Shown: one piece after another, positions 6,062 to 62,880 of the stretch
Layout of the letters: each line of letters begins with the position of its first letter
How positions within the stretch are numbered: the stretch's first letter is position 1
Assembly (NCBI GenBank): GCA_963719225.1
Contig: CAVRAY010000001.1
Location: forward strand, 2,400,001-2,464,000
Reading direction: 5' to 3'
Source: Thermoanaerobaculia bacterium
GTDB lineage: Bacteria > Acidobacteriota > Thermoanaerobaculia > UBA5066
Length of the DNA stretch: 64,000 nt
Translations under genes and position numbers: made by a program
Notes under the pieces: model-generated
The model's input: only the letters and a program-made list of their open reading frames with translations
What the model was told of the DNA's origin: nothing
Databases searched by the model: none

Positions 6062-6580
6062 TCAGGGATTCATGCGCCTCACGGTCTTCACGTCGGCGAA
6101 CCGCTCCGCGACGTGCGGGTCGTAGGGGCGCGCCGCGGAGGCATCGCGGACCCCCCGGTACTCGGTGTTGCATCGATAACAGATGACGATCGGCGCGACG
6201 CGCCGCGCGAGAACGAGATCGACCGCCGCCACGGCCAGCAGCACCGGCACGAACCAGATCCCGCCGAAGCGCCATGACACGGCGAGGGCGACCGCCGCGC
6301 CCGCGGCGAGGATCGCGCAGCCGAGGCGCTGGTCGAAATCCTTCTGGGAGAAGAGAGCGGTGGAAGAACAGCGAGAGCAGACGTCCACCCTCTCTCCGCC
6401 TCGAACGGCGTGCGAGTGGGAAAAGGCGATAGAAGAATGCTTAGAAGGACAAGAGACGGAACCCATAGGCGCGTCGGGGGGCGCGGGCAGCTCGATGCGG
6501 GCGAAGCATTCCGAGCAATAAACGGACACGCGCACCTGGTGAGGATACGTGCGCCGCCCCACTGTGCCTCCCTCTCTCAT
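6062..6580 (-). CDS. Hypothetical membrane protein with several CxxC motifs
   Basis: CSEC, CSRC and CYRC motifs flank two hydrophobic segments. The start is uncertain. Confidence 0.7.
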   Translation of the reverse strand: MREGGTVGRRTYPHQVRVSVYCSECFARIELPAPPDAPMGSVSCPSKHSSIAFSHSHAVRGGERVDVCSRCSSTALFSQKDFDQRLGCAILAAGAAVALAVSWRFGGIWFVPVLLAVAAVDLVLARRVAPIVICYRCNTEYRGVRDASAARPYDPHVAERFADVKTVRRMNP

Positions 6581-6635
6581 TCACCTTCTAAGAAAATCTT
6601 CTCTTCGATCCCCTCCCTTCTTCTCTTTCTAAGAA
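6438..6635. repeat. TTCTAAGNA motif cluster: left site 6438 (TGCTTAGAA), right sites 6586 and 6627 (TTCTAAGAA)
   Basis: Read directly. Spacings are 148, 189 and 41 bp; the right sites lie in a polypyrimidine tract. Confidence 0.85.
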
Positions 6636-6686
6636 GATCTTCTTTTCTTTCTTCTCCTTCTCTCTGTCTCTTACCATGCGCAGCTC

Positions 6687-7874
6687 ATGGCCATCCGCCC
6701 GATAGACCGCCGCGCCCTCGGCTGGCTCGCCGCCGCCCACGTCGTCAACGACATGAACCAGGGCGCCGTGCCGGCGCTGCTGCCGTTTCTCATCGCCGAG
6801 CGCGGCCTGACGTACGCGGCGGCGGGAGGTGTGGTCCTCGCGGCGACTCTGCTGTCGTCGCTCGTCCAGCCCGTGCTCGGCCACCTCTCCGACCGGCGGC
6901 CGCTGCCCTTCCTCATGCCGCTCGCGGTCCTTGCCGCGGGCTGCGGCCTCGCGCTCGCGGGCGCCGTGACGGGCTACGGCGCGACGATCGCCGCGATCCT
7001 TCTCTCGGGCGCGGGCGTTGCCGCCTTCCATCCCGAGAGCGCGCGCTACGCGAACTACGCCTCGGGCGAGCGTCGGGCCACCGGAATGAGCGTCTTTTCC
7101 GTGGGTGGCAATCTCGGAATCGCGCTCGGGCCGGTCGCGATCGCTCTTCTCGCGGGGTCGGGAGGCGTCGCGCGCATCGTCTGGATGGCTGTTCCGGCGG
7201 GCATCATGGCGGCGCTCCTCGCGCGTGAGCTGCCGCGCCTGCGCGTCCTGCGACCCGAAACCTCGCGCTCGCGCGCCCGCGACGACGCGGCGGCCCCGCG
7301 ATGGGGAGCCTTCACCCGGCTCTCCGTCGTGATCGCGGTTCGCTCGCTCTTCGCCTTCGGGCTCGTTTCGTTCGTCCCTCTCTATCTCGTGAAGGTCCGC
7401 GGGATTCCAAAAGAACGGGCCGCTCTCGCCGTGACCGCGATGCTTCTCGCCGGCGCCGTCGCGACGCTGGCGGGAGGCCGCCTCGCGGACCGCTTTGGGC
7501 GCCGCGCGGTCCTCGTCGGCGCGCTCTTGCCGCTGGCTCCGCTCCTCGCCCTTTTTCTCCGTGCCCCGGGGATTGCCGGTCTCGCGATTCTCGTGCTCAT
7601 CGGCGCAGGCACCGTGGCGACGTACAGCGTGGCCGTCGTGATGGGACAGGAGTACCTGCCGGGCCGCGAAGGCATCGCCGGGGGCGTCACGATGGGGCTC
7701 GCGATCGGCGTCGGAGGCGCGGGAGTTCCGCTTCTCGGAGCGCTCGCCGATCATCAGGGCGTCGCTTCGGTCTTCCCCGTTCTGGCGGCCCTGCCCCTCG
7801 TCGCCGCGGCGCTCTCGCTCACGCTCCCGGGGCCGCAGCCTGCGCTCAAACGGGAAGTCCCGAACGCCGCGTGA
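6687..7874 (+). CDS. MFS transporter, Fsr (fosmidomycin resistance)-like
   Basis: HVVNDMNQG, VQPVLGHLSDR, AAFHPE and GGRLADRFGRR motifs with a 12-TM pattern. Confidence 0.88.
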   Translation: MAIRPIDRRALGWLAAAHVVNDMNQGAVPALLPFLIAERGLTYAAAGGVVLAATLLSSLVQPVLGHLSDRRPLPFLMPLAVLAAGCGLALAGAVTGYGATIAAILLSGAGVAAFHPESARYANYASGERRATGMSVFSVGGNLGIALGPVAIALLAGSGGVARIVWMAVPAGIMAALLARELPRLRVLRPETSRSRARDDAAAPRWGAFTRLSVVIAVRSLFAFGLVSFVPLYLVKVRGIPKERAALAVTAMLLAGAVATLAGGRLADRFGRRAVLVGALLPLAPLLALFLRAPGIAGLAILVLIGAGTVATYSVAVVMGQEYLPGREGIAGGVTMGLAIGVGGAGVPLLGALADHQGVASVFPVLAALPLVAAALSLTLPGPQPALKREVPNAA

Positions 7875-8730
7875 GGTACGCGGCGAGGAGCTCGCCGACG
7901 AGGACGAACACGAGCCCCACGTAGAGGAGGCCCGTCGCCGCCTGATTCGACTTCATGCGCGCGGTCCTCACGACGAAAGGCGCGAGGACGAGCGGCGCGA
8001 GGAGTCCCCAGGTCACGCGCGACCAGAAGAAGAAACCGTCCCGCATGGGGTCGACCAGGCTCGCGAAGGCTTCGTTCGCCGGGCCTGCGTGAAGGCGCGC
8101 GGCCCAGCCGAGCGCGAGGAGCGCGAAGGCCACCCGCGCGAGCACCAGGAGAGCGAAGACCTCGGTTGCGCGCACGAGGAGGCCGAACGGCAACGACGTC
8201 GAGACGAGGTACCAGTGTCCGAGGTTCATGGCCCAGACGACGGCGCCGAAGAGCAGCGCGCCGAGGAGAAGCCCGGTGGCGAGCCACACGGGCCCGAGGC
8301 CGGGGAGGGAAACGAACGGCTCCACCCACACGCGCGAGAGCAGAAGGGCGAGGGACGAGAGAACGGAGACGAAGAGAAGATTCTTAGAAAGGGTAAGAGA
8401 GCGGGCGGAACGCAGGCGCGCGCAAAGCGTCGCCGCGCCAGCGGTCAGAACGGCCGCGAGGAGAAGGGATCTCGGCGCGAGCATCATCGAAAGCGCGCCG
8501 CCGTCTCGCGCTGCGCCGCCCGCGGCAGCGGCGCCGGCCTCACTCCCCCTTCTAAGAAGAAAACCACCTCTACCCGAAACGAGCCATGACAGGGAGAGGC
8601 ACGCCGTGACGATTCCGCCGTGCAAAGCGAAGAATCCCCCCGAGAGATCCTTCGAGGACGACAGAAGGGTGCATGCGGCCAGCCCCGCCGCGAGCTGCAG
8701 CAGCACCAGCGCGAGGACGTCGGCGACCAC
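7846..8730 (-). CDS. Hypothetical multi-pass membrane protein
   Basis: About 8 TM segments with AMNLGHWYLV and KSNQAATGLLY motifs. GTG start at 8730 chosen because TACACT lies 6 nt upstream. Confidence 0.75.
   Translation of the reverse strand: MVADVLALVLLQLAAGLAACTLLSSSKDLSGGFFALHGGIVTACLSLSWLVSGRGGFLLRRGSEAGAAAAGGAARDGGALSMMLAPRSLLLAAVLTAGAATLCARLRSARSLTLSKNLLFVSVLSSLALLLSRVWVEPFVSLPGLGPVWLATGLLLGALLFGAVVWAMNLGHWYLVSTSLPFGLLVRATEVFALLVLARVAFALLALGWAARLHAGPANEAFASLVDPMRDGFFFWSRVTWGLLAPLVLAPFVVRTARMKSNQAATGLLYVGLVFVLVGELLAAYLTRRSGLPV
8381..8558. repeat. Inverted motif pair TTCTTAGAA (8381) / TTCTAAGAA (8550), 169 bp apart
   Basis: Read directly; both sites are inside the CDS. Confidence 0.85.
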
Positions 8731-9532: not shown

Positions 9533-9539
9533 GGCCGCC

Positions 9540-19169: not shown

Positions 19170-19688
19170 CTAGTCCAGGAGGCCTTCCGGCGGGTCGAGG
19201 ACGATGCGCCGCTTCGCGACGTCGACGGAAACCACGATCGGACGGGAGAACGGGACGTCGCGCGCGCCGCGCGCCGTCTCGAGGACGAGGAGGGACCGCC
19301 CCCCGACGTCAGCAAGCTCCGTGACCCGCCCGAGCACGGTACCCGCCGCGTCGACGGCGAGCGCGCCCTCGATCTCCCAGTGGTAGACGTACCCCTCGGG
19401 TCGGGGAGCGACGTCCCGCGCGCTCACGCTCAGATCCGCGTTCCGAAGCGTCTCGGCCATCGAAACGTCCGAGATTCCTTCGAAGGTGAGGAGCACACGG
19501 CCTTGATGGGGGCGCACCGCCGCGATGCGCACCTCTCGCTCCTCGTGCGCACCGCCGGAGAGGCGGACTCTCAACCCTTCTGAGAATCTCTCCGGAAAAT
19601 CCGTCAACACTTCGACGACGACCTCTCCCTTGAGGCCGTGCGGCTTCACGACTTGACCAATGACGACGCGATCTTCCGGCGCGGTCAT
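19170..19688 (-). CDS. rimM: Ribosome maturation factor RimM
   Basis: IGQVVKPHGLKGEV; located between rpsP and trmD. Confidence 0.93.
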   Translation of the reverse strand: MTAPEDRVVIGQVVKPHGLKGEVVVEVLTDFPERFSEGLRVRLSGGAHEEREVRIAAVRPHQGRVLLTFEGISDVSMAETLRNADLSVSARDVAPRPEGYVYHWEIEGALAVDAAGTVLGRVTELADVGGRSLLVLETARGARDVPFSRPIVVSVDVAKRRIVLDPPEGLLD

Positions 19689-22675: not shown

Positions 22676-23662
22676 CTGCGTACTCTCCTCGTCGACCTCG
22701 GCAACGTCCTCGTCCGGTTCGATCACGACGTGACGCTCCGGCGAATCGAGGCGGCCACCGGCGTGCCTTCCGCGGCCCTGCGTCCGCACCTCTTCGGGCC
22801 GATCGAGCACGAATTCGATCTCGGACGGATGCCGGCGGCGGCCTTCTTTCGCGCGGCCGAGCGTGCCGCGGGGATTCCCCGGCTCGACGACGACCTCTGG
22901 ATTCCGGCCTGGCGCGATATTTTCACGGTCGTTCCCGCGGCTCTCTCCGCGCTACGCCAACTCGAGCCTGACGTCGTGCCCATTCTCGTCTCCAACACGA
23001 ATGCTCTTCACTGGGAAGGTGTGCTGCTCGTCGCTCCGGAGCTGCCTCGCCTCGTCCCCCTTCGGGCACTTTCCTTCGAGGTCGGCGCCGCGAAGCCCGA
23101 TCCCGCGCACTTTCACGCCGCCCTCGCGCGCGCCGGAGCGCGGTCCGAAGACGCTCTCTACGCCGACGACCGGCCCGACCTCGTCGAGGCGGCGCGGGGC
23201 CTCGGCATCGACGGATTCGTCGTGGCCGATCCCGAGCTGTTCGCGGACGAGCTTCGCGACCGCGGCTTCCTCGCGCCGTCACCCGCGCACCTGCCCTCGC
23301 CGCCGGCGCACTTCGGGGGCGCCTCCTCACCGCACTTCGTGAAAGGCGTCACGGAGTTCCGGGCGGCGCGTTTCTTCGAGGCTCACGAAGAATGGGAACG
23401 GCTCTGGAAGGAAAGCAAAGGCGACGACAAGGTCTTTCTGCAGGCGCTCATCCAGCTCGCCGCGGCGTGCGTCCACATCGGGCGTGGCAACGCCGCGCCG
23501 GCGAAACGCCTTCTGGAGCTCGCGAAGGCGAAGCTGGATCGGTTCGGGAAGGAAGAGGGGGAAATAAACCTTGGATTTCTTAGAAAGGAAATCGGATCGG
23601 CCCTCGCGGAGGCTCCTGAGGCCCTTCTACGGGTCGATTTGCGCAGCTGGTTTCCAATGTGA
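22676..23662 (+). CDS. HAD-family hydrolase fused to a C-terminal DUF309-like domain (probable CTG start)
   Basis: HAD motif I (LLVDLGNVL) lies upstream of the listed GTG; SNTN, KPDP and DDR motifs; C-terminal FFEAHEEWE..W..LQALIQLAAA. Confidence 0.8.
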   Translation: MRTLLVDLGNVLVRFDHDVTLRRIEAATGVPSAALRPHLFGPIEHEFDLGRMPAAAFFRAAERAAGIPRLDDDLWIPAWRDIFTVVPAALSALRQLEPDVVPILVSNTNALHWEGVLLVAPELPRLVPLRALSFEVGAAKPDPAHFHAALARAGARSEDALYADDRPDLVEAARGLGIDGFVVADPELFADELRDRGFLAPSPAHLPSPPAHFGGASSPHFVKGVTEFRAARFFEAHEEWERLWKESKGDDKVFLQALIQLAAACVHIGRGNAAPAKRLLELAKAKLDRFGKEEGEINLGFLRKEIGSALAEAPEALLRVDLRSWFPM

Positions 23663-23724
23663 CGGCGCGCGCGGCGCCCCTGTTCCCCTCCAAGAAATCT
23701 CTTTCTCTCTCTTCTTCCTAAGCA
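23577..23724. repeat. Inverted motif pair TTCTTAGAA (23577) / TCCTAAGCA (23716), 139 bp apart
   Basis: Read directly; the right site has one mismatch and lies in a pyrimidine tract. Confidence 0.75.
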
Positions 23725-25052
23725 AAATCTCCTTCTTTTTCCGGCACCCTCGGCAAGACGCCAGCCGCGCGCGCGGCGACTTCCGAGAGGAGCGTTCCGT
23801 CCGGCATGCGGCTCGCCGCGCCGTGCATTCCGCGCTGGCCGACGCCGAGGCGCGCGAGCGCTTCGCCGACGCGCCCGGAAATGCCGCGCGGGCGCGACCA
23901 GCCCGCAGCGGCTTCTTCGAGGACCACCCGGTAGGCCTCGGCAATGCGCTCGGGCCGCCGGGGCACGCCCCAGACCGACGCGGCGCGTCCCCTCTCAGGG
24001 GCGAGATCCGGCTCGAACGCGAGCCGCTCCATGGTCTGCGCGAGACGCGCGACCTCGTCGCCGCCGACCGGGATCTTGTCGGCAAACGCGTCTGGCAGCT
24101 CGCGGAACCAGCCCGTGTCCGACACGACGAGCGGCAGTCCGAAGCCGGCGAGACGGCACACGGCGTGGGAGGTCTCTCCCATCGTAGGATGGCGCAGGTT
24201 CACGGCGAAGGTCGCGGCGGAGGCCGCGCGCCAGAGGTCCACCTCGGACAGATAGCCGCCGAACCTCACGTCCTCCTGGAGGCCGCTCTCACGCACGGTG
24301 GATCGGAGGGCGTCGTCGTCCGCCACGGCTCCGCCGATGAAGAAGAAGGGCCGGCGCCCGGGCGGAAGCGTCGCGAGCGCCTCGAGGATCTTCGCGATGC
24401 GCTTGGCGGGCGACACGATCCCGAGCGTGATCCCGGCCGGCCGGTCCCGCGGGAAGCCGAGGGCCTCGCGCGCCTCGAGGATTGGCGTCCGCGGGGCGGG
24501 CGCGACGTGCTGCGGGATCGTGAGGGCGCGGGTGCCTGGGCACTCCGCGAGAACCGCGCCGGTCACGAGCTTCGAATGCGAGACGACCGCTTCGGCGGCA
24601 CGGATCACTCCCGCGGACATCGGATAGCGCCACGGGTCGAGGTCCCAGACCGGGACGCAGGAGCCATCCCTGAGCGTCGCGGCAAACGCCATCCCGCGCA
24701 CGCCATGCGCCCGTTCCAGCTCGCGGACGTAGTCGCCGGACCGTGAGCGCGTGAGGTACGCCGCCGCGAAGAGATGGTGGAGGACGAACTCGTGGAGAAC
24801 CACGACCGCCGGAGTCCGGCGTTCCGGATCGAAGAGCGCCTCGACGGACGGCGCGTGAAGCGGATCGTTGCCGATCTGGACGAGGAGCACGTCGTGGTTC
24901 GCCTTCAGCGCGGCGGCCGCGTTCGCGGGTTCGTACGAAGAGACCGAAAGAGAGGGATTCTTAGAAAGTGAAGAGAGGATCTCTGCGTCGTAGTCCGCGA
25001 TGCCGGAGCGCGTGGGTGGGAGAGGGCCGATGAAACCTACCGAGAGGGGCAT
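23718..25052 (-). CDS. Glycosyltransferase family 4
   Basis: PLPPTRSGIADY, NLRHPTMGETS and VVSDTGWFREL. Confidence 0.88.
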   Translation of the reverse strand: MPLSVGFIGPLPPTRSGIADYDAEILSSLSKNPSLSVSSYEPANAAAALKANHDVLLVQIGNDPLHAPSVEALFDPERRTPAVVVLHEFVLHHLFAAAYLTRSRSGDYVRELERAHGVRGMAFAATLRDGSCVPVWDLDPWRYPMSAGVIRAAEAVVSHSKLVTGAVLAECPGTRALTIPQHVAPAPRTPILEAREALGFPRDRPAGITLGIVSPAKRIAKILEALATLPPGRRPFFFIGGAVADDDALRSTVRESGLQEDVRFGGYLSEVDLWRAASAATFAVNLRHPTMGETSHAVCRLAGFGLPLVVSDTGWFRELPDAFADKIPVGGDEVARLAQTMERLAFEPDLAPERGRAASVWGVPRRPERIAEAYRVVLEEAAAGWSRPRGISGRVGEALARLGVGQRGMHGAASRMPDGTLLSEVAARAAGVLPRVPEKEGDFA

Positions 25053-25103
25053 TTATCGAATTCCGCCCGCATCGAGCAGCGCCCGCACGGCATTTTCCCA
25101 GGA
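24958..25103. repeat. Motif TTCTTAGAA (24958) with a degenerate partner TTCCCAGGA (25095), 137 bp apart
   Basis: Left site is exact. The right site has two core mismatches but keeps the GATCCCTCTT flank. Confidence 0.5.
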
Positions 25104-26090
25104 GATCCCTCTTACCCTTTCAAAGCCTCTTTCTCCGAATTCCCTCGATTTCTGCGCGTCCGCAAGAAGAGCTGTTGCCGACTCGGCGAGGGCTTCCGCG
25201 CTCGGCGCGACGACGCGGCCGTTCTCCCTGTCGACGACGAACTCCAGCGGCCCGCCCGAGTCCGTGCACGTCACGACGGGCTTCTTCGACAGGAACGCCT
25301 CGAGCGCGATGTAGCCATAGTCCTCGTCGGCCGGCGGAAAGATCACGACACCGCAGGTCGCGTAGAGACCGAGGAGCTCGTCGTCGGACACGCGCCCGGC
25401 GAAGCGAATTTCGGCGCCGCTCTTTCCGGCAAGAGCTTCCAACCTGGCGCGGTCGGCGCCGTCACCCGCGATGACGAGCCGGAATCTCCCGGCTGCGGCC
25501 GCCGCGATCGCGAGATCCACCCGCTTCCACGCGTCGAGCCGGCCGGCCACGAGCGCAAATCCTCTCGAGACCTCGCACCGATAGCGTCCCGCGAGCGGCG
25601 GCGGATGATAGAGAGCCTCCGCCTCGATCCCGTTGAACCGCGCGAGCCGGTCCGCGGTGTTCTTCGCGTTCGTGAAGATCTTGCGCGCTTCCGAGAGGCC
25701 CGTGCGATCCGCTTCGGCGATCAGCTCGCGCCAGCGCGAGTCCTCGGGCGAGGCGGTGAAATCGCTCTGGGAGGTGCCGAAGCGGTCGTAGGCCTGGCGG
25801 AACTGATGGATCAGCCAGACGACCTTGTTCTCGTGCCTCACGAGGTAGGACGGGAACTTCATGGGGATGACGAGATCGACGCGCTTGCCGTCCGCTTCCG
25901 AAACGTCGAGAAGCCTCCACGCGAGCGCCGAGGTCAGAATCTCCGCGCGCGGGTACCACTTGAACGGAAGGCGCACGAGGTCGGCCTCGTGACCGGAGGC
26001 GGCGATCTCGCGCACGAGCCCCTCGGCGTGACGTTCGGCGCCGCCGGAGGAGAACGGCACCTGCGCCGTGCAGACGAGGACGCGCGCCAT
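25053..26090 (-). CDS. Glycosyltransferase family 4
   Basis: PFSSGGAE, GRLDAWKRVD and EDYGYIALEAF. Confidence 0.9.
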   Translation of the reverse strand: MARVLVCTAQVPFSSGGAERHAEGLVREIAASGHEADLVRLPFKWYPRAEILTSALAWRLLDVSEADGKRVDLVIPMKFPSYLVRHENKVVWLIHQFRQAYDRFGTSQSDFTASPEDSRWRELIAEADRTGLSEARKIFTNAKNTADRLARFNGIEAEALYHPPPLAGRYRCEVSRGFALVAGRLDAWKRVDLAIAAAAAGRFRLVIAGDGADRARLEALAGKSGAEIRFAGRVSDDELLGLYATCGVVIFPPADEDYGYIALEAFLSKKPVVTCTDSGGPLEFVVDRENGRVVAPSAEALAESATALLADAQKSREFGERGFERVRGISWENAVRALLDAGGIR

Positions 26091-26098: not shown

Positions 26099-27445
26099 CT
26101 ACTTCACGCCCGTGACGGCGTAATCCTGCGGGGCGAAAAGAAGGCGCGCGAGCGGTGCGAACCGTGGGTCGTCGGCGAGACCCCTGGGCAGCCCCTCCGA
26201 CTCCGGAACGGGAGAGCGGAAGCCCACTTCGACGTCCCGGAACCCGGACGCCGTCAGGAGCCGTGCGAGCGAAGGCGCGGGGACCGGCCTCACGTGCGTG
26301 AGGTCCATCCAGAACCAGCGCATCGCATAGACGGACTCGGGATTGATCGTCTCGAAAAGCACGCGGCCGGTCGGCGCGAGCTTCCGGAGGGCGAGCTCCA
26401 CGAGGTCGAAGAGGGACGCGGCCGGAAGGTGCTCGACGACCTGGAAGGCCGTCACGCCCCCGAGTGAGGAGTCCGCGCGGGCAGCGAGCCACGTGAAGAG
26501 GTCGGCTTGATCCACCGCGAGCTTCTTCTCTTTCGCGCGCGCGGCCATCACGGGGTTCGCGTCGCAGCCGATCGCGGCGACTCCCTCGGCGGTCAGAGCC
26601 TCGAGGAACTCTCCGCGCCCGCAGCCGAGGTCGGCGACGGGCCCGGGCGCGCCGCGAAAACGGGCGGCGTCGCTCGCCTGGCGGGCACGAATCTCCTCTT
26701 CGCTTCCCCGGAAATGCTCCTCGAAGTCGGCGTAGAGACCCGCGCGCAGGGGGTCGTCGGCACGCACCGCGGAATCCGCAGCCTGCCCACGCGCGACGGG
26801 TGAGGGCCGGGCTTCGGAGAGGTTCTGCAAATTGCTTCGAAGGGAGGACCAATCGAGGCGCAGCATCCGGAGGCCTTCGTTCGCCTCTTCGACCTTTCCA
26901 AGAATCCCCCGGGTTTCCTCCGCCGACCGTTCCCTCTCCCGCGCGAGCGCCTCGAAGCGCTGGTCGCGGTCCTTTTCGAGCGCGTCCAGCCGGCGCTGGC
27001 TCGCTCGGAGCTCCTCGCCCGCGCTCTCGCGTGCTTCGCTCTCGCGCGCGAGCCGCGCGTTGAAGCCTTCGTCGCTCTCCGTGATCTGCCGCAGGACGGC
27101 CTCCGTCTCGAGAAGCGCGCCGCGGAGGGATTCGAGGAGCGCGGAGTTGAATGTCGTCTGGTCCCGCGTGACGATCCTGAGGACGCGCAGCAGCGCGGCC
27201 TTGAGCGGCCGCAGAGAGGCGCCGGCCGGCAGCACGGGGGCGACGAAGCGTCCCGCGTTTTCCAGCATCGTTCGCGGCCCCGTGTACGCGGGGACGCCCG
27301 GCGAGGGGGCGGACCGTTGGGCCGGCGCGTTCGTCGGCGCGAGACCCGAGCCGGAGAAAGCCGCGAGCGACGTGATCTGCTCCGCAAGCTCGGCGGCCAG
27401 GGCCGCGACGTCGCGTTTCGCCGCGTCCTCGGGCTTTCCGCTCAT
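26099..27445 (-). CDS. Class I SAM-dependent methyltransferase with coiled-coil N-terminus (surface-glycan locus)
   Basis: FEEHFRGS, DLGCGRGEFL, FQVVEHL, ETINP and DLTHVRP. Confidence 0.88.
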   Translation of the reverse strand: MSGKPEDAAKRDVAALAAELAEQITSLAAFSGSGLAPTNAPAQRSAPSPGVPAYTGPRTMLENAGRFVAPVLPAGASLRPLKAALLRVLRIVTRDQTTFNSALLESLRGALLETEAVLRQITESDEGFNARLARESEARESAGEELRASQRRLDALEKDRDQRFEALARERERSAEETRGILGKVEEANEGLRMLRLDWSSLRSNLQNLSEARPSPVARGQAADSAVRADDPLRAGLYADFEEHFRGSEEEIRARQASDAARFRGAPGPVADLGCGRGEFLEALTAEGVAAIGCDANPVMAARAKEKKLAVDQADLFTWLAARADSSLGGVTAFQVVEHLPAASLFDLVELALRKLAPTGRVLFETINPESVYAMRWFWMDLTHVRPVPAPSLARLLTASGFRDVEVGFRSPVPESEGLPRGLADDPRFAPLARLLFAPQDYAVTGVK

Positions 27446-38275: not shown

Positions 38276-41080
38276 TCAGGGGGCGAGCCGCTCCCTCACC
38301 TTCGCGACGCCCAGCGCGAGGGCCGGCTCGATCTGGGCCGCGTCCTTGCCGCCCGCCTGCGCGAGATCGGGCTTTCCGCCGCCCTTTCCCCCGACCGCCG
38401 GCGCCATGACCTGCGCCAGCTCGTTGGCGGAGACCCGGGCCACGAGGTCGGACGTCACGGCTGCGAGCAGCGTGACCTTGCCTTCCAGCTCGGTTCCGAG
38501 GAGGACGACGCCGGACTTCAGCTTGCTTCGGAACGTGTCGGCGAGATTACGCAGCTCGTTCGTCGGGAGCGACGGCACGCGGCGGGCGAGGACCTTCACT
38601 CCCGCAATCTCCTCGATGCCATCGTTGTCGCGGCCGGAGACGTCCGAAGAGGACGAAGAGGAAGACTTCTTAGAAGGTGAATGTCCAGAGGCAGAGGCGC
38701 CCGGCTGCCCGCCCGAGGCGACCATCGCGCCTGCGCTCACCCCCGCGCCGCCGCCCGCCAGCGCGAGATCGCGCTTGAGAGCGGCAATCTCTTTTTCTCT
38801 CCTTCTAAGCAAATCGACCATTTCCCTGAGCTTCGAGGGCAGCACGTCGAGCGGTGTGTTCACGATCTGCGAGATCTGAGAAAGGATGTCTTCGTCCCTC
38901 TGGAGCCTTTCGACCGCGTTCAGCGACGTGACCGCCTCGAGGCGGCGGACGCCCGCAGCGAGGCCCTTGTCCGAAAGGACCTTGAAGGCGCCGATTTCGC
39001 CCGTGCGCCCGACGTGACAGCCGGCGCAGAGCTCCGTCGAGAAGCCCGGCACGTCGACCACGCGAACGCGCTCGCCGTACTTCTCGCCGAAGAACATCAT
39101 GGCGCCTTTCTTCTTCGCGTCGTCCATCGACATGACGGCCTTTGACACCTCGCGGTCGCGCAGGATTTCCTCGTTTACGAGGCGCTCGATCTCGCGGATC
39201 TCCTCGGCGGTCGTCGGGCGCGAGGCCGCGTAGTCGAAGCGCAGGCGGTCCGGCGAGACGAGCGAGCCCATCTGGCGAACGCTCTCCCCGAGGACCTTCC
39301 GCAGCGCGGCATGCAGGAGGTGCGTCCCCGTATGGTTCGCCTGGGTCTTGCGGCGCGTCCACTCGGGAACACCCATAGAAACCAACTGCCCGGGGGCCAG
39401 GGCACCAGAAGAAATTCTTAGAAGGTGAAGAATGGCGCGGCCATTGGGCGCGCGGCGCGTGTCGAGGACCGTCGCGGCGCCCGCCTCGCCGCCGGTTCCC
39501 TTCCAGAGGAATTCCCCCTGGTCGGCGACCTGGCCGCCGCCCTCGGGATAGAAGACGGTGCGTTCCATGACGACCCACCCCTGCTGACCAGCGGTGAGGC
39601 GTTCGCCACGTTCGAAGAGACCCTGCTTAGAAGGTGTAAAGAGACCGAGGACTCGCCCGCCTTCCAGGCTCACGAAATCCTGCTCGGGATACCCGCGGAA
39701 TTCGGTCGTCCACGACGGATCGATCTGGTCGTCCGGCGGCAGACCGCCCTCCCCTTCGAACTTCGACGCGCCCTTGCTCCGCTCGCGGGCCGTGGCGAGC
39801 TCCTTTTCGAAGCCCGCAACGTCCAGCTTGACGCCTTCATCAGAAGAAATCTCTTCGATCGTCTCCAGCGGAACACCATACGTGTCATAGAGGCGGAAGG
39901 CAGCCTCGCCCGAAAGAAGCGCCTCGCCGCGACGCCGCATTTCCGAGATCGCCTCGCCGACGCGGTCGACGCCGACAGACATCGTCTTCGCAAAGCGCGC
40001 CTCTTCTTCTTCGATCAACCCGAAGATCGCCTTTGCGCCGGGATTCTCTTCACCTTCAAAGAAAATCTCCAATGACTCCGTTACCCCGGGGACGAGCCTG
40101 AAGAGGAACGTATCGACGATGCCCAGCCGGCGCCCGTACCGGACTGCACGCCGAATGATCTTTCGCAGAACGTATCCGCGGCCTTCATTCGAAGGAATGA
40201 CTCCGTCCGCGATGAGCATCGTCGCGGCGCGGGCGTGATCGGCGACGACCCGGAACGGCGCGTCTTCGACCGCCATCCCTCCGACGTACTTCCGGCCTGA
40301 GATTGCCTCGATCTTCGCGATGATTCGCGCGAACAGGTCCGTGTCGTAGTTGTTGTTCTTTCCCTCGAGGATCGCGGTGATGCGCTCGAGGCCGGCGCCC
40401 GTGTCGACGCTCGGCTTCGGGAGCGGGGTCATCTTCCCGGAGGCGTCGCGGTCGAACTGCATGAAGACGAGATTCCAGATCTCCATGACGCGATCGCCTG
40501 CGCCGTTCGGCGTCGCGTCGCCGGGCACTCCGTCGCCCTGGTCGTAGTGGATCTCGCTGCACGGGCCGCAGGGACCCGTATCGCCCATCGACCAGAAGTT
40601 GTCCTTCTCGCCGAAGCGGGCGATGCGTTCTTTCGGGAGGTACTTCCCCCACAGCGCGGCCGCCTCGTCGTCGTCCGTGAAGACCGTCGCCCACAGGCGC
40701 GAGGGGTGGAGCCCGTAGCGTCCCGTGACGAGCTCCCACGCGTAGTCGACCGCCTCCTCCTTGAAGTAATCGCCGAAGGAGAAATTGCCGAGCATCTCGA
40801 AGAAAGTGTGGTGCCGCGCCGTGTATCCCACGTTGTCGAGGTCGTTGTGCTTGCCGCCCGCGCGCACGCACTTCTGCGAGGAGGTCGCCCGCACGTAGCC
40901 GCGCTTCTCCCGCCCGAGGAAGAGGTCCTTGAACTGGTTCATCCCCGCGTTCGTGAAGAGCAGGGTCGGATCCTCGGCCGGCACGAGCGAGGAGGACGCC
41001 ACGCGCGTGTGCCCCTTCTCCTCGAAGAAGGACAGGAACGTCTCGCGGACCTTGCGGGAGGTCCAGCCGGAGGCCGCCAT
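38276..41080 (-). CDS. alaS: Alanine--tRNA ligase
   Basis: FTNAGMNQFK, HHTFFEMLGNFSFGDYFK, NHTGTHLLH and GGKGGG. Confidence 0.97.
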   Translation of the reverse strand: MAASGWTSRKVRETFLSFFEEKGHTRVASSSLVPAEDPTLLFTNAGMNQFKDLFLGREKRGYVRATSSQKCVRAGGKHNDLDNVGYTARHHTFFEMLGNFSFGDYFKEEAVDYAWELVTGRYGLHPSRLWATVFTDDDEAAALWGKYLPKERIARFGEKDNFWSMGDTGPCGPCSEIHYDQGDGVPGDATPNGAGDRVMEIWNLVFMQFDRDASGKMTPLPKPSVDTGAGLERITAILEGKNNNYDTDLFARIIAKIEAISGRKYVGGMAVEDAPFRVVADHARAATMLIADGVIPSNEGRGYVLRKIIRRAVRYGRRLGIVDTFLFRLVPGVTESLEIFFEGEENPGAKAIFGLIEEEEARFAKTMSVGVDRVGEAISEMRRRGEALLSGEAAFRLYDTYGVPLETIEEISSDEGVKLDVAGFEKELATARERSKGASKFEGEGGLPPDDQIDPSWTTEFRGYPEQDFVSLEGGRVLGLFTPSKQGLFERGERLTAGQQGWVVMERTVFYPEGGGQVADQGEFLWKGTGGEAGAATVLDTRRAPNGRAILHLLRISSGALAPGQLVSMGVPEWTRRKTQANHTGTHLLHAALRKVLGESVRQMGSLVSPDRLRFDYAASRPTTAEEIREIERLVNEEILRDREVSKAVMSMDDAKKKGAMMFFGEKYGERVRVVDVPGFSTELCAGCHVGRTGEIGAFKVLSDKGLAAGVRRLEAVTSLNAVERLQRDEDILSQISQIVNTPLDVLPSKLREMVDLLRRREKEIAALKRDLALAGGGAGVSAGAMVASGGQPGASASGHSPSKKSSSSSSSDVSGRDNDGIEEIAGVKVLARRVPSLPTNELRNLADTFRSKLKSGVVLLGTELEGKVTLLAAVTSDLVARVSANELAQVMAPAVGGKGGGKPDLAQAGGKDAAQIEPALALGVAKVRERLAP
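38667..38811. repeat. Inverted motif pair TTCTTAGAA (38667) / TTCTAAGCA (38803), 136 bp apart
   Basis: Read directly; inside alaS. Confidence 0.85.
39415..39632. repeat. Direct motif pair TTCTTAGAA (39415) / TGCTTAGAA (39624), 209 bp apart
   Basis: Read directly; both are followed by GGTG and lie inside alaS. Confidence 0.8.
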
Positions 41081-46686: not shown

Positions 46687-47307
46687 CTGTTCGTCTCCGG
46701 AGTTCTTCTCGCGGCAGGTGCCTCCACGCGCTTCGGATCTTCGAAGATGCTCGCGCCGGTCGGAGAAGAAAAAACACCTTTGCTTCGCAGGGTGCTGGAG
46801 ACATGGCTCGCATCCGGGTTCGACGAGGTGATCGTCGTTCTGGGAAGGGATGCCGCTGACATTCGAGCCAGGCTCGAAGAGAACCTGCTTAGAAGGGTCA
46901 ATGGGGAAGAATCAGCCGCAGCGCCTGTCCGCTTCGTCGAGAACCCGAAGTGGGAGGCTGGGATGTTTTCTTCTGTGAAAGCGGGGCTCGCCGCGACGTC
47001 CGCCCACTCGACGCACATCGCCATCTCCCCCGCCGATCTTCCCTTTCTAAGCAAAGGTACTCTTCGGACCGTGATCGGTGCAGCAGCCTCCGCCGACGAG
47101 CGCACGGTCGTCGTTCCGACCTTCGGCCGCCGCCGCGGGCATCCGCTCGTGATTCCCGCGTCCCTTCGGGCGCGTCTGCTCTCCTGGCCCGACACCGCCC
47201 GCTTGAATCTTCTCTTCGAGGAAAAAGATCTCTCGGTCCTCCATCTCGAAGGCTTCGATGAAAGCATCCTTCATGACGTCGACACGCCGGGCGATCTCTC
47301 CCGATGA
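46687..47307 (+). CDS. Molybdenum cofactor cytidylyltransferase-like nucleotidyltransferase (MocA family); start non-canonical or uncertain
   Basis: GVLLAAGASTRFGSSK lies upstream of the first ATG; GMFSS, ADLP, GHP and DVDTPGD. Confidence 0.82.
   Translation: MFVSGVLLAAGASTRFGSSKMLAPVGEEKTPLLRRVLETWLASGFDEVIVVLGRDAADIRARLEENLLRRVNGEESAAAPVRFVENPKWEAGMFSSVKAGLAATSAHSTHIAISPADLPFLSKGTLRTVIGAAASADERTVVVPTFGRRRGHPLVIPASLRARLLSWPDTARLNLLFEEKDLSVLHLEGFDESILHDVDTPGDLSR
46886..47053. repeat. Inverted motif pair TGCTTAGAA (46886) / TTCTAAGCA (47045), 159 bp apart
   Basis: Read directly; inside the mocA-like gene. Confidence 0.85.
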
Positions 47308-50933: not shown

Positions 50934-51734
50934 TCAAGCGGAATCGACCAACTTCGCAAGCGCCACGACCACGGCGGTCTCGAGGCGGAGAATGCGGGGG
51001 CCGAGAGAGAAGAAAAGAGCACGGTTTTCTTCGAATAACGAGATTTCGGCCGGAGCGAACCCACCCTCGGGACCGATGGCGACAAGGGAGGGCTGGGAAA
51101 ACGCCTGGGCGCCGCCCAGAGGCGCCGCTGGATCCAACACGACGAGCCTTTCCCCTCTTACCTCTCCAAGAAACTCTTCGGTGCTCTTCGGACCTTCCAC
51201 TCCCGGCACGATCGTCCGGTCGCACTGCTTCGTCGCTTCGACGGCGATCCGGCGCAGGCGCTCGAGGCGGGCGGGCGACGAGAGCGCCGTCACGTGCGAC
51301 TTCTGCGACCGTTCGCACGCGAGGAGGACGAAACCCGCCGCTCCGCATTCCGTGCCCTTCTCGATCGCCCATTCGACGCGCGCGGGCTCGGCGCACGCGA
51401 GGGCGACGGTCACGCGGTTCGCGGGCTCGCCGGGGAGAGAAGGGGAAGAAGAAGAGGAAGAGGAGGAAGAAGAGAAGATCTTCTTAGAAGGTAATAGGGC
51501 GATCGCGGCGCCTCCCCTCGCGAGAACGGCCCTGACACGTGCGCCCTTTCCGTCGAGCGCGATGACCTCGTCGCCGTCGCGCAGGCGCCTCGAGCGAACG
51601 TGTTCTCTCTCTTCCCTTCTAAGTAGAATCTCTTTCTTCCGGTCTTCGTGCTCTTCGAACGTCGCCATCTGCTCCGCCAGATCGGGCACGTAGACCCGTG
51701 GCGGCCGCGCGGGGGCGGGGGCGTTCTCACTCAT
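50934..51734 (-). CDS. rsmE: 16S rRNA (uracil1498-N3)-methyltransferase
   Basis: EKGTECG, EATKQC, IGPEGGF and LGPRILRLETA; contains a poly-Ser insert. Confidence 0.9.
   Translation of the reverse strand: MSENAPAPARPPRVYVPDLAEQMATFEEHEDRKKEILLRREEREHVRSRRLRDGDEVIALDGKGARVRAVLARGGAAIALLPSKKIFSSSSSSSSSSPSLPGEPANRVTVALACAEPARVEWAIEKGTECGAAGFVLLACERSQKSHVTALSSPARLERLRRIAVEATKQCDRTIVPGVEGPKSTEEFLGEVRGERLVVLDPAAPLGGAQAFSQPSLVAIGPEGGFAPAEISLFEENRALFFSLGPRILRLETAVVVALAKLVDSA
51027..51172. repeat. Degenerate inverted motif pair TTCTTCGAA (51027) / CTCCAAGAA (51164), 137 bp apart
   Basis: Both sites are imperfect, with the same purine-left/pyrimidine-right flanks. Confidence 0.5.
51481..51625. repeat. 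Inverted motif pair TTCTTAGAA (51481) / TTCTAAGTA (51617), 136 bp apart
   Basis: Read directly; the left site is preceded by a polypurine tract of about 45 nt. Confidence 0.85.
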
Positions 51735-52572
51735 TCGAAGAAGCCCACGCTGTCCCGAGCCATTCGTTCTCCTGAATGGATCGGACCAGCCGAAAGCCTT
51801 CCTTCCGAAGCAGAATCTCCCACTCCCCTTCCCTCTCCACGAGCTGTCCGGAACAGAGAAGCCTCCCGCCCGGCGCGAGATGCCCGCGGAGCACCGCAAG
51901 GAGCGGAGCCGTCTCCTCGTGGATCATGTTCGCCACGACGAAGTCGAACCGGGCTTCGTCTCGGATCGCCTCGAGGGGACCGGCGAACGCCTCGACGCGC
52001 GGAATCCCGTTCGCGCGGGCCTGCTCGCGCGTCGCGAAGGCGGCGAGTGGGTCGACGTCGAACGCCACGACCCGGCGCGCCCCTTCGAGCGTGGCGACGA
52101 ACGCGAGCGTCCCGGTGCCGCAGCCCACGTCGAGGACCCGCGCGCCGCGCAGGTTCTCCGCGAGGAGGAGACGCACGGCGATGCGCGTGGACTCGTGCGA
52201 GCCGGTCCCGAAGGCGCGGACCGCGGGAAGGAAGAGCCGACGAACGCCGGGAGGCGCCGCAGTTGCGAGAGGACCGTCGTGTGGGTCGAAGAGAAATTTC
52301 TCGACGAGCACGGCCTTCCTCAAGGCAGCCGACTCGGCGACCCAATCGGTGGATTCTTCTTCGAAGGTGGAAAGACCGCGAGCGCCGAGCGCCTCGAGTG
52401 CGGAAAGCGCAGCCGCGACGTCCCACGTTCGGACCCAGAGAAAGAGTTTGCCATCCACGTCGGCCGCAGACGAAAACTCCAGCCCCCCTAACCCTTCTAA
52501 GAAATCCCCATGGTTCTCTTCGAATCTGGCGGCCAGCTTCGCGGGGACTTCAATGCGAACCGCAGTTGTCAT
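51727..52572 (-). CDS. prmA: Ribosomal protein L11 methyltransferase
   Basis: AFGTGSHEST, VLDVGCGTG and VVAN; located between dnaJ and rsmE. Confidence 0.88.
   Translation of the reverse strand: MTTAVRIEVPAKLAARFEENHGDFLEGLGGLEFSSAADVDGKLFLWVRTWDVAAALSALEALGARGLSTFEEESTDWVAESAALRKAVLVEKFLFDPHDGPLATAAPPGVRRLFLPAVRAFGTGSHESTRIAVRLLLAENLRGARVLDVGCGTGTLAFVATLEGARRVVAFDVDPLAAFATREQARANGIPRVEAFAGPLEAIRDEARFDFVVANMIHEETAPLLAVLRGHLAPGGRLLCSGQLVEREGEWEILLRKEGFRLVRSIQENEWLGTAWASSNE
52357..52503. repeat. Inverted motif pair TTCTTCGAA (52357) / TTCTAAGAA (52495), 138 bp apart
   Basis: Right site is exact; the left site has one mismatch and keeps the GGTG flank. Confidence 0.7.
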
Positions 52573-52580
52573 GCACCGAG

Positions 52581-52619
52581 GAAAACCGGGGCGAACACTC
52601 CGTGTCGCGTTCCCCCCGG
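52581..52619 (-). terminator. Possible terminator between dnaJ and prmA
   Basis: Imperfect stem CCGGGG...ACAC-GGA-GTGT...CCCCGG followed by TTTTC on the minus strand. Confidence 0.45.
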
Positions 52620-52629
52620 CGCCCCCCTC

Positions 52630-53751
52630 CTACGTACGAACAAATTCTCTCAATCTCTCGAAAAAGCCTTTTTCATCCTTCGTCGGCGTTCCCGACTCCG
52701 AACCGAACGCTTTCGCGAGCTTCTCCATCGCCTCGCGCTGCACGGCGTTCATCTTCTTCGGCACGCGCACGGTGAGGAGGACGTGCTGATCGCCCTTGCC
52801 GCGGCCGTCCAGCCGCGGAACGCCTTTCCCCTTGAGCGTGAACACGCGGCCCGCGGCCGTGCCGGGCGGGACATCGAAGGTGGCGTCGCCGTGGAGCGTC
52901 GGAACCCGCAGCGTGCCGCCGAGGGCGGCGAGATGGAACGGCACGGCCCACGTGAGGATCACGTCGAAACCGTCGCGCCGGAACTGCTCGTGCGGCGCGA
53001 CCGAGATGAAGACATAGAGATCGCCGACGCGGCCGCCGCGCCGGCCCGCATTCCCCTCTCCCGTGAGGCGCAGCCTCGCCCCTTCGTCCACGCCTGCGGG
53101 GATCGCCACCGTGAGGGTTCGCGCGCGGCGCGTACGGCCGTCTCCCCGGCATTCGGGACAGGGATCCTTCACGCGTTCGCCCGCGCCCTCGCAGTCAGGA
53201 CACGGACGGGCGAGGGCGAAAAACCCCTGCCGATACTGGACGCGCCCCTGGCCCCGGCACGTCGAGCACGTGACGGGAGCGGCCCCGCCGCGACCTCCGC
53301 GGCCCTGACAGGCCTCGCAACGCTCGTAGCGGTGGATCGGGAGCGAGACTTCCGAGCCGAAGGCGGCGGATTCGAATGACAGCGTGACATCGGCCTTCTG
53401 GTCCTCGCCGTTGCGGCGCGCCCCCCGCACGTCTCCTCCGGTCGCGAAGCCGAACAGGTCGCCGAGGATGTCGGCGAAGTCCACGAACTGTGTCGGATCG
53501 AATCCCACCCCGCCCATCCCGCGCAGCCCTTCGTGCCCGAAGCGGTCGTAGCGCTCGCGCTTCTCGGGGTCCGAGAGCACGGAATATGCCTCGGCCGCCG
53601 CCTTGAACTTCTCCTCGGCGCTCTTGTCCTCCGGGTTCTTGTCGGGGTGGTGCTTCAGCGCGGCCCGGCGGTAGGCGGACTTGATCTCGTCGGTCGAGGC
53701 GCTTCGCCCCACACCGAGTACCTCGTAATAGTCGCGAAGGGTCGTGCTCAC
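52630..53751 (-). CDS. dnaJ: Chaperone DnaJ
   Basis: HPD J-domain and four CxxCxGxG repeats. Confidence 0.96.
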
Positions 53752-61169: not shown

Positions 61170-61549
61170 GGCTTGCCCTCGACACGAATCGCTACGTCGA
61201 TCTGTGCAACGGTCGCGCTCAGACGGCTGAGCTCGTCGCCACGGCCGAGGAGGTTCTCCTTCCCTTCATCGTCGTCGCCGAGCTCCGCGCCGGCTTCTCG
61301 ATCGGCCGCCGATCCGCCGAGAACGAGCGCGTCCTCCGGCTCTTCCTCCTGAAGAGCGGCGTCCGCGCCCTCTACGCCGACGAGCAGACGACACACCACT
61401 ACGCGGCCGTCTTCCGGCAGCTTCGGAGACAAAGCACGCCGATCCCCACGAACGACATCTGGATCGCCGCATTGGTGCTCCAGAACGACCTCGCTCTGCA
61501 CGCCCGCGACAAGCACTTCGACGAGCTGCCGCAGATCGTCAGAAGGTAG
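61166..61549 (+). CDS. vapC: VapC PIN-domain toxin
   Basis: LDTN, VVAEL, NDIWIAA and RDKHF. Confidence 0.9.
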   Translation: MRLALDTNRYVDLCNGRAQTAELVATAEEVLLPFIVVAELRAGFSIGRRSAENERVLRLFLLKSGVRALYADEQTTHHYAAVFRQLRRQSTPIPTNDIWIAALVLQNDLALHARDKHFDELPQIVRR

Positions 61550-61658
61550 CGCCGCCCCGGATGTTTGCGACCGCGACGTAAACCGCGCAACCACACGCGC
61601 GCGGCGTGGAGAACGGCGGCGTTTCGACGCGACGGGCTCCCCACACCGCGTCCGGTGC

Positions 61659-61943
61659 ATGTCAGATCTTGAGATGCACGTCACTAATCCGCGGGGTCCC
61701 GAGCACGCGTTCGAGGTCCAGCTTCCGTTCCTGCAGCGAATCCTCGGCGAGGGCTTCACGTTCCTTCCCGTAGCCGTCTCGGAGCAGTCGGCTTCGGAGA
61801 AGGCGGATCTCATCGACGTGTTCCTCGGCGAGACCGGCACGCTGGTCCTCGTAAGCACCGACCTCAGCCACCATCACGGCGTCGAGACCGCCCGCCGGCT
61901 CGACCGCGAAACGGCGGAGAACGTCGTCGCGCGGAAAGCAAAC
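61659..61943 (+). pseudogene. Internal fragment of AmmeMemoRadiSam protein B (MEMO1/AmrB), cut by IS481
   Basis: EHAFEVQLPFLQ and VSTDLSH motifs; both termini are missing. Confidence 0.7.
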
Positions 61944-62880
61944 TGTCGGGGCTAAACAGATTGTTCACTCTGGACACCGGCGGTTTACCTCCGAGTGAGG
62001 AGTGCTGGCGGTGGAAATTGTAGTAGTGGAGCCAGCGCGGTAAAGCGTGGCGGCGCTTTGCTGAGGAAGAGTAAGAGCGGCGATAGGCCCACTCCCTGAG
62101 CATGGTCTGGATGAAGCGCTCGGCCTTGCCGTTGGTGCGCGGGCGGTAGCGGTGGGTGAAGCCGTGCCGAATCGAGGCCCTGTCGAGGACTTCGTTGAAA
62201 GTGCCCGAGGTAAAGACCTTGCCGTTATCGGTGAGGAGTCGTCGGGGCTGTATCCCCGAGCCGCGGTACCAGGCGATGGCGCGCTCGAGGAATCCGGCCG
62301 CCGTGTGTTTGTCTTCGGTTTTCAGCGGCTCGACGTAGCTCAGGCGCGAGTGGTCGTCGATGCACACGTAGATGTGCTCGTAGCCGACGCCGCGCTTCAT
62401 TCTTGTGCGGTCGCCGTGGATGCGGTGGCCTGGACCTCCGACGATGTGGGCCAGCTTCTTGATGTCGATGTGGAGGAGGTCTCCGGGATTCGGGAGCTCG
62501 TAGCGATTCGGCGGCTCGGGCGGCTGACGGGATCGCAGACGGCCCACGCCGGCCTTTCGAAGAATCCGGCTCACCGTGGCCCGTGGCAGCCCGATCGTCT
62601 CGGAGATCTCGCGCCCCACGAGGCGCTTCTGGCGCATCTCCAGTACCCTCCTTCTAAGCTTCTCTGGCGTTCGCGTGGGAGAGCTGCGCGGCCGGCTCGT
62701 TCGGTCCAACAGCCCCGCCAAGCCTTCCTCACGGTAGCGCCTCAGCCCCTTGGCCACGGTTCTGACGCTCAGTCCAAGGGCTTCCGCCGCCTCCCGGCGG
62801 CTCCAGCCCTCGGACTGCACTCTGTGGACGGTTAGCTCTCGACTTCGGGGGTTCGTTCTTGCTCTGCTATGGCAGTTCAT
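61864..62880 (-). CDS. IS481 family transposase
   Basis: HTH N-terminus; HIDIKKL, IDDHSR, TDNG, TNGKAERFIQT, YN..R.HSSL and terminal RVNNL. Confidence 0.92.
   Translation of the reverse strand: MNCHSRARTNPRSRELTVHRVQSEGWSRREAAEALGLSVRTVAKGLRRYREEGLAGLLDRTSRPRSSPTRTPEKLRRRVLEMRQKRLVGREISETIGLPRATVSRILRKAGVGRLRSRQPPEPPNRYELPNPGDLLHIDIKKLAHIVGGPGHRIHGDRTRMKRGVGYEHIYVCIDDHSRLSYVEPLKTEDKHTAAGFLERAIAWYRGSGIQPRRLLTDNGKVFTSGTFNEVLDRASIRHGFTHRYRPRTNGKAERFIQTMLREWAYRRSYSSSAKRRHALPRWLHYYNFHRQHSSLGGKPPVSRVNNLFSPDSLLSARRRSPPFRGRAGGRSRRRDGG

Follow-up and report, generated by a model that had tools for sequence, protein, structure and literature searches.

A 64-kb stretch of a Thermoanaerobaculia genome (contig C1, 2.40–2.46 Mb; this whole stretch is called the window below) carries a short AT-rich word, TTCTAAGNA, scattered through its genes, and the question is what such a word does inside the coding sequence of a GC-rich chromosome. 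The genome (G000) consists of two contigs and 4.75 Mb with 68% GC, and the closest named relatives of its AlaS (75–84% identity) are Thermoanaerobaculia records. The word was found to be part of a longer asymmetric motif whose sites are arranged as back-to-back pairs. As to their role, we give about as much weight as doubt to the reading that they are paired docking sites for a lineage-specific chromosome-handling protein.

Enrichment and anatomy of the motif

The window contains 16 exact copies of the word, compared with a mean of 0.26 and a maximum of 2 in 100 dinucleotide shuffles. A preliminary description of this DNA had reported the same 16 copies at the same positions, 7 on the plus and 9 on the minus strand and 14 of them in coding sequence, and all of this was confirmed, while its GC content of about 70% is corrected to about 68%. 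The codons that it considered rare are so (CTA 0.5, TTA 0.19, AGA 2.1, and TCT 3.1 per 1000), and the frame independence that it noted extends to the whole genome, where all frames are used.

The genome holds 338 exact copies. With our own gene calls (3996 genes, 89% coding), 205 exact copies are coding, against 2–6 in five genome-wide synonymous shuffles, which rules out a codon or peptide artefact. Motif words also top the lists of 7- to 10-mers when compared with an order-3 Markov model. An iterated matrix identified 834 sites at a threshold of at least 18 bits (30 in the shuffled coding set) and 594 at 24 bits (5 in the shuffled set). An assembly artefact is ruled out as well, since other genomes, assembled independently, have sites at the orthologous places. 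Neither of the two grounds for refutation named in the preliminary description therefore applies. Contigs over alaS from four public runs represent relatives at 85–95% identity; one of them (1274 bp) spans the pair at 38667 and 38803, and no joint among those listed skips the spacer, which is weak evidence. The sites are real and strongly non-random.

The motif is asymmetric and about 28–40 bp long, with the core TTC-N-AAGAA and pyrimidine flanks. The arm consensus is approximately YYYTTCNC-C-Y-TTC-N-AA-GAA-AW-YYYY, after which TCTTC-type units form a tail that fades out, and G is nearly missing from −8 to +14 on the motif strand, save at two core positions. The fourth position of the core, T in the earlier consensus, turned out to be degenerate. 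Two-fold symmetry is limited to TTC-N3-GAA; the centre and the flanks are specific to one strand, and at no position do both strands give a score. The logo does not differ between 181 intergenic and 547 coding sites and is degenerate to an equal degree in both, with a few near-invariant positions, as would be expected for a binding profile and not for a decaying copy.

Predicted coding sequence contains 590 of the 834 sites (71%), with 289 in the sense and 301 in the antisense direction, and the remaining 244 are intergenic. Positions along genes are flat. The leading and lagging strands carry 422 and 412 sites, respectively, under a test in which GGGGAG-type words are skewed. With strand and sense counts balanced in this way, the motif has no polarity to replication or transcription, unlike Chi, FtsK-orienting polar sequences (KOPS) and Ter, whose orientation follows the replichore.

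Back-to-back pairing, spacing and spacers

The sites had been described as single dispersed words, which does not hold: the unit is an oriented pair. Among adjacent sites within 300 bp, 259 pairs are divergent (minus-then-plus) and 9 convergent (random mean 11.8, maximum 24). The number of pairs increases to 332 when a 10-bit partner is allowed, and larger clusters follow the order (minus)n(plus)m with hardly an exception. An opposite site of at least 8 bits was found on the inner side of 137 of the 316 nominally unpaired sites, versus 9 on the outer side.

The spacing has a lower limit near 68 bp, a mode at 75–79 bp, a second bump at 135–139 bp and a tail to about 260 bp. The median is 79 bp for intergenic and 125 bp for coding pairs, and the coding spacings are not multiples of three (63/45/54). 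No helical phasing was seen for periods of 8–14 bp. A 30-bp period stems from the two modes and is gone without the first, and is a hint only. Most pairs lie within one transcription unit, and 162 of the 259 lie inside one gene. Of 57 intergenic pairs, 4 are between convergent genes and 15 between divergent genes.

The arms are complementary by consensus, which together with their location in single transcription units could point to a role in RNA or transcription, such as a long-range stem, a terminator, a promoter element or a Rho-type pyrimidine tract. We consider such a role highly improbable. Pairing between the real partners is no stronger than after permutation (−31.85 versus −31.53 kcal/mol, sd 0.4, 225 pairs), so no selection for hairpins is seen; the spacers show no excess of structure over controls (z +0.11 versus −0.21, 133 spacers), and Rfam gave no match in the window. 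The equal sense and antisense counts, the flat positions along genes and the 15 pairs between divergent genes also speak against it, as does the dominance of one order, because an RNA stem could form in both.

The pairs might instead be the ends of a small selfish element, similar to REPINs, miniature inverted-repeat transposable elements (MITEs) or Rickettsia palindromic elements (RPE), which inserted in frame and whose ends were kept or domesticated. REPINs, the doublets of repetitive extragenic palindromic (REP) sequences linked to the REP-associated tyrosine transposase (RAYT), are likewise over-represented as inverted doublets and have a similar size of spacing, with 71 and 110 bp as common values in Pseudomonas fluorescens (PMC3116915). 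The spacers, however, are unrelated: 204 of 259 match no other spacer, and the longest stretch shared with any other site has a median of 18 bp. The single large spacer cluster consists of 16 kinase paralogues, and in these, as in alaS, the spacers are ancestral coding sequence. No target-site duplication was detected in 180 tests (best z 3.4), and there is no arm covariation. Compared with REPINs, the motif lies mostly (71%) in genes and arose there mostly by substitution, and no hairpin, compensatory change, fixed spacing or RAYT-type transposase was found (PMC3116915). The family PF01797 (Y1_Tnp) was not found in G000 and was found in 4 of 26 congeners versus 17 of 17 genomes of the motif-negative g13, so it is anti-correlated with the motif. 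MITEs and RPE differ in that most sites here involve no insertion, and no related internal sequence or near-identical young copies were seen. Thirteen long pairs of 0.6–5 kb, considered as the bounds of an autonomous element, bracket mixed gene sets. We regard a selfish origin as quite unlikely.

A tandem array of at least nine Ser/Thr-kinase-like genes is located at C1:2295–2320 kb, and the catalytic domain of each has a motif pair exactly 93 bp apart. The spacers are GC- and GpC-rich, between genes too (0.151 versus 0.106). No centre or outer-end motif was found beyond this GC/GpC richness inside and the repeated TCTTC-type units outside. The arms of a pair are no more alike than random arms, save for a slight excess in the core.

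Conservation, origin and loss of sites

Sites were followed in orthologues from 400-kb stretches of G019, G174 (sister genus g11) and G082 and from 312 kb of G166 (283, 183, 226, and 77 orthologues, respectively). In G019, 56 of 69 sites are kept at 77% protein identity. The core A/T third positions are identical in 91 of 106 codons (86%), compared with 265 of 1351 (20%) elsewhere in the same genes, so the motif is conserved at the DNA level, a check that the preliminary description had put forward. G174 keeps 14 of 38 sites at 18 bits and 6 more at 10–18 bits, G082 3 of 49 and G166 none of 23. Orthologous pairs keep both arms as the spacing shifts (e.g., 136/118, 122/80, and 137/176). In G174 paired sites persist more often than single ones (15/19 versus 6/19, p = 0.008), which would also fit a selfish doublet.

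When 54 sites were compared with motif-poor outgroups, 39 were free of insertions and 15 were insertion-linked. Insertions of at least 3 aa occur at 24–30% of sites versus 1–3% of control positions, and the site-linked ones extend inward, in the direction of the partner arm. Of 21 genome-specific insertions of at least 8 aa, 8 contain a site and two a whole pair. Protein identity at the sites is 0.28–0.38 versus about 0.67. Given these insertion counts and the low identity, most sites came about by overwriting of coding positions that tolerate change, and a minority arrived along with extra DNA.

Two multicopy insertion sequence (IS) families carry one unpaired site near the 3′ end of each copy, which a selfish origin would accommodate. 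They comprise nine IS5-like and five IS110-like copies, labeled by sequence reading (e.g., C1:2033783–2035130 and C1:2200806–2202367). In the motif-free G166 an IS110-like element (L141:3237 and 8160) has a 21-bit site at the same place, which may be chance.

A repair or rewriting process that turns near-matches into the motif at both ends of a 70–260 bp tract would explain the writing by substitution, the indifference to frame and strand, the cost to proteins, a gradient with replication time and the differing densities among relatives. The sites would then be a mutational product. A comparable rewriting origin has reportedly been proposed for HIP1 of cyanobacteria. Such a process requires an enzyme whose target is asymmetric, degenerate and 28 bp long, and none was identified; in addition, the graded G-free flanks and the GC- and GpC-rich spacers, even between genes, look selected. 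We find it very unlikely.

Position on the chromosome

The origin was placed at C2:0.33–0.37 Mb (dnaA, parAB1-parS, skew minimum) and the terminus at C1:2.04–2.10 Mb (dif, skew maximum); the ring order of the two contigs is inferred. Tenths of the chromosome hold 36–54 sites in the origin half and 95–149 in the terminus half. The density of coding sites rises from origin to terminus about 3-fold on both arms (7 to 20 and 7 to 26 per 100 kb); for intergenic sites the rise is 9-fold and 1.6-fold on the two arms. Three strong sites lie within 200 bp of dif (C1:2.0376 Mb). The dif arms themselves are unrelated to the motif and were rejected as its source, and the motif differs in this from Xer/dif half-sites. 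G174 is likewise thin on the origin side, with 3 of 81 matches in the 0.75 Mb that includes the origin-type parB.

The earlier suggestion of a role in chromosome organization gains support from this gradient. Dispersed sites with an origin-terminus bias and a higher density near dif are also known for matS/MatP, Noc-binding sites (NBS) with Noc, and parS/ParB (PMC11564523; PMC7383237). The dimer sites of matS number a few dozen (43 and 35 for the two chromosomes of Vibrio; PMC11564523), whereas about 800 asymmetric sites in oriented pairs occupy the whole chromosome here, with no confinement to, or exclusion from, a terminus domain.

Sites are missing or nearly so from windows of atypical composition, from the rRNA operon and from a 150-kb stretch between tRNA and transfer-messenger RNA (tmRNA) genes. 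Among genes ranked by codon adaptation, the top tenth has 5.0 sites per 100 kb and the lowest quarter 18–20. Long site-free stretches (C2:473–623 kb and C1:52–160 kb) adjoin tRNA and tmRNA genes; they could reflect islands, a duplication or bin contamination. Two tmRNA genes are present on C2, and a tRNA-Pro(tgg) lies near each of them. Contamination, listed at 6.2% for this genome, may contribute to such empty stretches.

Pairing apart, this footprint most resembles that of an uptake sequence. The uptake signal sequences (USS) of Pasteurellaceae and DNA uptake sequences (DUS) of Neisseriaceae also occur in hundreds of non-palindromic copies, in all frames, on both strands and at poorly conserved protein positions. 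They too have a core with extended flanks, are seldom found in rRNA, in constrained genes or in DNA acquired recently, and are lineage-specific (PMC2817400; PMC7811141). The motif could accordingly be a new uptake or recombination signal that spread by molecular drive, with no benefit at each locus, if uptake or recombination favors the DNA that carries it. ComEA, ComEC, DprA, and a ComM-like gene are present in the genome, and g1 and g11 share a ComEA-like protein with two helix-hairpin-helix (HhH) domains. One site suffices for uptake, however; in Haemophilus influenzae uptake does not increase with two USS within 100 bp of each other, and inverted USS pairs overlap within 14 bp as terminators (PMC7811141). 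The pairs described here appear obligate, are back to back 68–260 bp apart in one orientation only, and have an unrelated sequence. Moreover, a terminus gradient is not predicted for uptake, ComEA, ComEC, and DprA are family-wide, and the double-HhH protein also occurs in the motif-negative G218. Of the uptake role proposed earlier, the genomic footprint fits and the pairing does not, and we hold this explanation to be unlikely.

The double-HhH protein is secreted and encoded at C1:1007226–1007921, and the linker of its gene carries one of the strongest motif sites.

Distribution among relatives

All of 24 congeners (genus g1) carry 56–346 exact 9-mers, compared with 15–58 for a reversed control, and 16 genomes of two other families carry 0–4. 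Among 200 genomes of the class, only g1 and G174 were above background. Other g11 genomes have 9–50 matches to a 12-mer pattern with the same pairing, and exact matches in the sister genus range from 9 to 81. In g81–84, 0–5 matches were found. In a draw of 300 genomes of the phylum, which did not include g11, only the three congeners stand out (87–139 versus ≤7). The negative rows include the unpublished genomes G025, G193, and G196, and no claim depends on those alone. By inference the motif has a single origin in the lineage of g1 plus g11, whose members are kin and thus not independent cases.

Twenty-two viral loci have an 18-bp match, and none has a divergent pair. The top paired words in about 350 kb of the motif-free g13 are integron-type repeats, and the paired-word screen of the remaining motif-free genera was confounded by orthologous loci. 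An array of short open reading frames (ORFs) separated by attC-like repeats, with two IS110-like copies, is apparently an integron cassette array (G166:C2:1710001–1721681). No description of the motif was found in full-text searches on motif and lineage, which covered titles and abstract openings and had subscription journals and supplements outside their scope, and the motif is apparently undescribed in print.

The enrichment, distribution and conservation support the earlier claim of a lineage-specific DNA-level signal overprinted on coding sequence.

A chromosome-handling protein as possible reader

Our preferred explanation is that a lineage-specific protein reads the double-stranded sites, and that two oppositely oriented bound copies act together across the GC-rich spacer. 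Recognition by a protein is suggested by a degenerate, strand-asymmetric profile that is held against codon bias, in and outside genes alike, with no selection for pairing; the earlier proposal of protein binding is favored to this extent. The one orientation, the hard lower limit of spacing, the broad upper tail and the lack of phase point to two bound units that cooperate over a flexible link, which may be a loop or a sliding or loaded intermediate, with the protein footprint setting the minimum spacing. The job would be chromosome management, i.e., helping to organize or segregate the chromosome, as the gradient and the indifference to transcription suggest. Weak selection for more stations would fix new sites where proteins tolerate them, such as variable loops, linkers and less codon-adapted genes.

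The arrangement has a parallel in the opposed origin recognition complex (ORC) sites at which minichromosome maintenance (MCM) double hexamers are loaded in yeast and archaea. These work best at 70–90 bp and up to 300 bp (PMC12440816). They likewise consist of two asymmetric opposed sites in a similar range, but this is an analogy without any claim of homology, and the spacing is measured differently (PMC12440816). The pairs are not replication origins, because skew, dnaA and dif define one origin and one terminus. A further step would be a new kind of chromosome machine with about 260–330 stations per genome, at which a lineage-specific factor would load or hold a two-part complex between opposed sites, and which rewrite essential proteins, are concentrated towards the terminus and are possibly read by the tandem helix-turn-helix (HTH) protein described below. 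We offer this, by analogy, as a possible but rather doubtful extension.

Several observations weigh against paired docking sites. The intergenic gradient is weak on one arm (44 to 69 per 100 kb), and the gradient as such could reflect gene content or recombination. In G240, among the matches listed, sites are thin over about 1.2 Mb including the contig with the origin-type parB, and the other side of that genome is not thin. Paired and single sites are kept alike in G019 (34/40 and 24/29), and the joint loss of both arms does not reach significance (Fisher p 0.3; 19 and 9 pairs). The 15 insertion-linked sites, with two whole pairs as in-frame insertions, and the slight core agreement within pairs (0.865 versus 0.855 at random, p = 0.007) also count here. 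Given the range in the sister genus, a high site count is dispensable. Finally, no tested protein family tracks the distribution of the motif. The competence proteins are found in motif-negative genera too. The histone families PF09123 and PF00808 were not found in any of five genomes, and HU/IHF has four paralogues in g1, the extra one of which also occurs in the motif-negative G075. ParB2, encoded beside dif and considered for the terminus bias, has its own 18-bp palindrome, which is the same in motif-positive and motif-negative genomes (identical in nine of ten loci, with one base different in G000), and its recognition helix is nearly the same in both sets of genera. The tandem-HTH protein occurs in all 17 motif-free g13 genomes as well, and no link to the site was seen.

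This tandem-HTH protein (C1:3836045–3836539, minus strand) is nevertheless the best lead for the motif reader, although it is quite unlikely to be the right one, and it is possible that it is a nucleoid protein. It is a basic protein of 164 aa without a Pfam family, and its gene adjoins glnS. The structural model (predicted local distance difference test score 69.5) has two three-helix units, a disordered linker with an AT-hook-like GRP and a C-terminal helix. Fold searches gave common three-helix matches alone (Z ≤ 6.4; mariner DNA-binding domains at Z 5.4–5.5), and the leads from an atlas were all under 0.9; no function is shown by either. Of 60 genomes from the family, 53 have the protein, and it was found in 1 of 74 genomes from the rest of the class. 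That the range of the motif nests inside its own follows from the protein being nearly family-restricted.

Both ParB proteins have other sites, and the MatP and SlmA families were not searched for. Two ParB genes are present in nearly every family genome. The second parAB operon (C1:2037568–2039524) has the palindrome inside parB2, and its end is 100–350 bp away from dif in every one of ten genomes examined from the family. Tex (PF09371) was not found in G000, in 26 of 26 g1 or in 8 of 8 g11 genomes, and was found in 13 of 17 g13 genomes and in most other genera; the motif-negative G075 lacks a match too.

Sites in the window and their host genes

At a threshold of at least 10 bits the window contains 36 sites, nearly all in minus-then-plus clusters (Table 1). 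The hosts of the exact copies in coding sequence include alaS, rsmE, prmA, a glycosyltransferase gene, a HAD/DUF309 gene and the conserved unnamed ORFs 6062–6580(−), 7846–8730(−), and 46747–47307(+); the copies that start at 6586 and 6627 lie between genes. Of the six near-matches reported earlier, five are members of the motif (19578, 17.9 bits; 23716, 23.9; 26896, 17.9; 40055, 36.0; and 52357, 26.2). The sixth, at 62652, is doubtful and probably not a member.

Table 1. Motif pairs, clusters and related features of the window (positions and spacings in bp; minus and plus give the orientation of an arm).
Feature	Position	Strand	Remarks
Cluster minus(6438) plus(6586) plus(6627)	6438..6635		26.0, 40.3, and 37.6 bits
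Back-to-back pair, spacing 169	8381..8558		Inside membrane-protein gene 7846–8730(−)
Back-to-back pair, spacing 102	19476..19586		Within rimM
Cluster minus(23577) plus(23688) plus(23716)	23577..23724		Spans ends of two convergent genes
Pair, spacing 161	24958..25127		Minus arm strong (34.7 bits), plus arm weak (12.9 bits)
Weak pair, spacing 63	26833..26904		Methyltransferase gene
Weak pair, spacing 215	29959..30182		
alaS	38276..41080	−	Intact essential host gene, six sites
Pair in alaS, spacing 136	38667..38811		
Four more alaS sites: minus 39415, weak plus 39611, minus 39624, plus 40055	39415..40063		
Pair, spacing 69	43081..43158		Gene start
Pair, spacing 159	46886..47053		Within conserved ORF 46747–47307(+)
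Pair, spacing 137	51027..51172		rsmE
Cluster minus(51481) plus(51617) plus(51734)	51481..51742		rsmE and prmA end
Cluster minus(52357) plus(52495) weak plus(52657)	52357..52665		prmA and dnaJ end
Near-match	62652..62660	+	9.6 bits, unpaired, in IS481 transposase

The alaS gene illustrates both ways in which sites arise. The 38803 arm is written over conserved residues by substitution, and the 38667 arm lies in a linker insertion of about 30 aa that is missing from motif-free orthologues. The spacing of this pair is 136, 103, and 91 bp in three relatives. The three strong sites among the other four can be aligned to motif-free orthologues with no large insertion. In the first cluster of Table 1 the first arm lies within ORF 6062–6580, and the remaining two precede a major facilitator superfamily (MFS) gene. 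The peptides encoded by both arms of the pair at 8381 recur in the G019 orthologue. At 51481..51742 the pyrimidine tail codes for a poly-Ser stretch that the motif-free orthologue does not have.

Apart from the sites, the window encodes a DUF309 domain fused to a haloacid dehalogenase (HAD)-like hydrolase (22763–23662) and an IS481-family transposase over the curated cut-off (61864–62949). A basic ORF of 86 aa (49644–49904) had no Pfam match even at E 1.

Implications

The motif distorts the proteins into which it is written, as seen from poly-Ser linkers and PSKK and FLEG peptides, which matters for the annotation and comparison of genomes in this lineage. A reader is directly testable with the motif, the spacing optimum, the graded carriers (dense genus, sparse sister genus, and motif-free relatives, all within one family) and the candidates named above. 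Few known DNA signals overwrite coding sequence genome-wide (uptake sequences, Chi, KOPS, and matS-type sites), and none of those compared needs two opposed sites at a flexible distance of 70–260 bp. If drive made the pairs, they would be a third uptake-type system with different rules. If a protein reads them, they would represent a new way of handling bacterial chromosomes.

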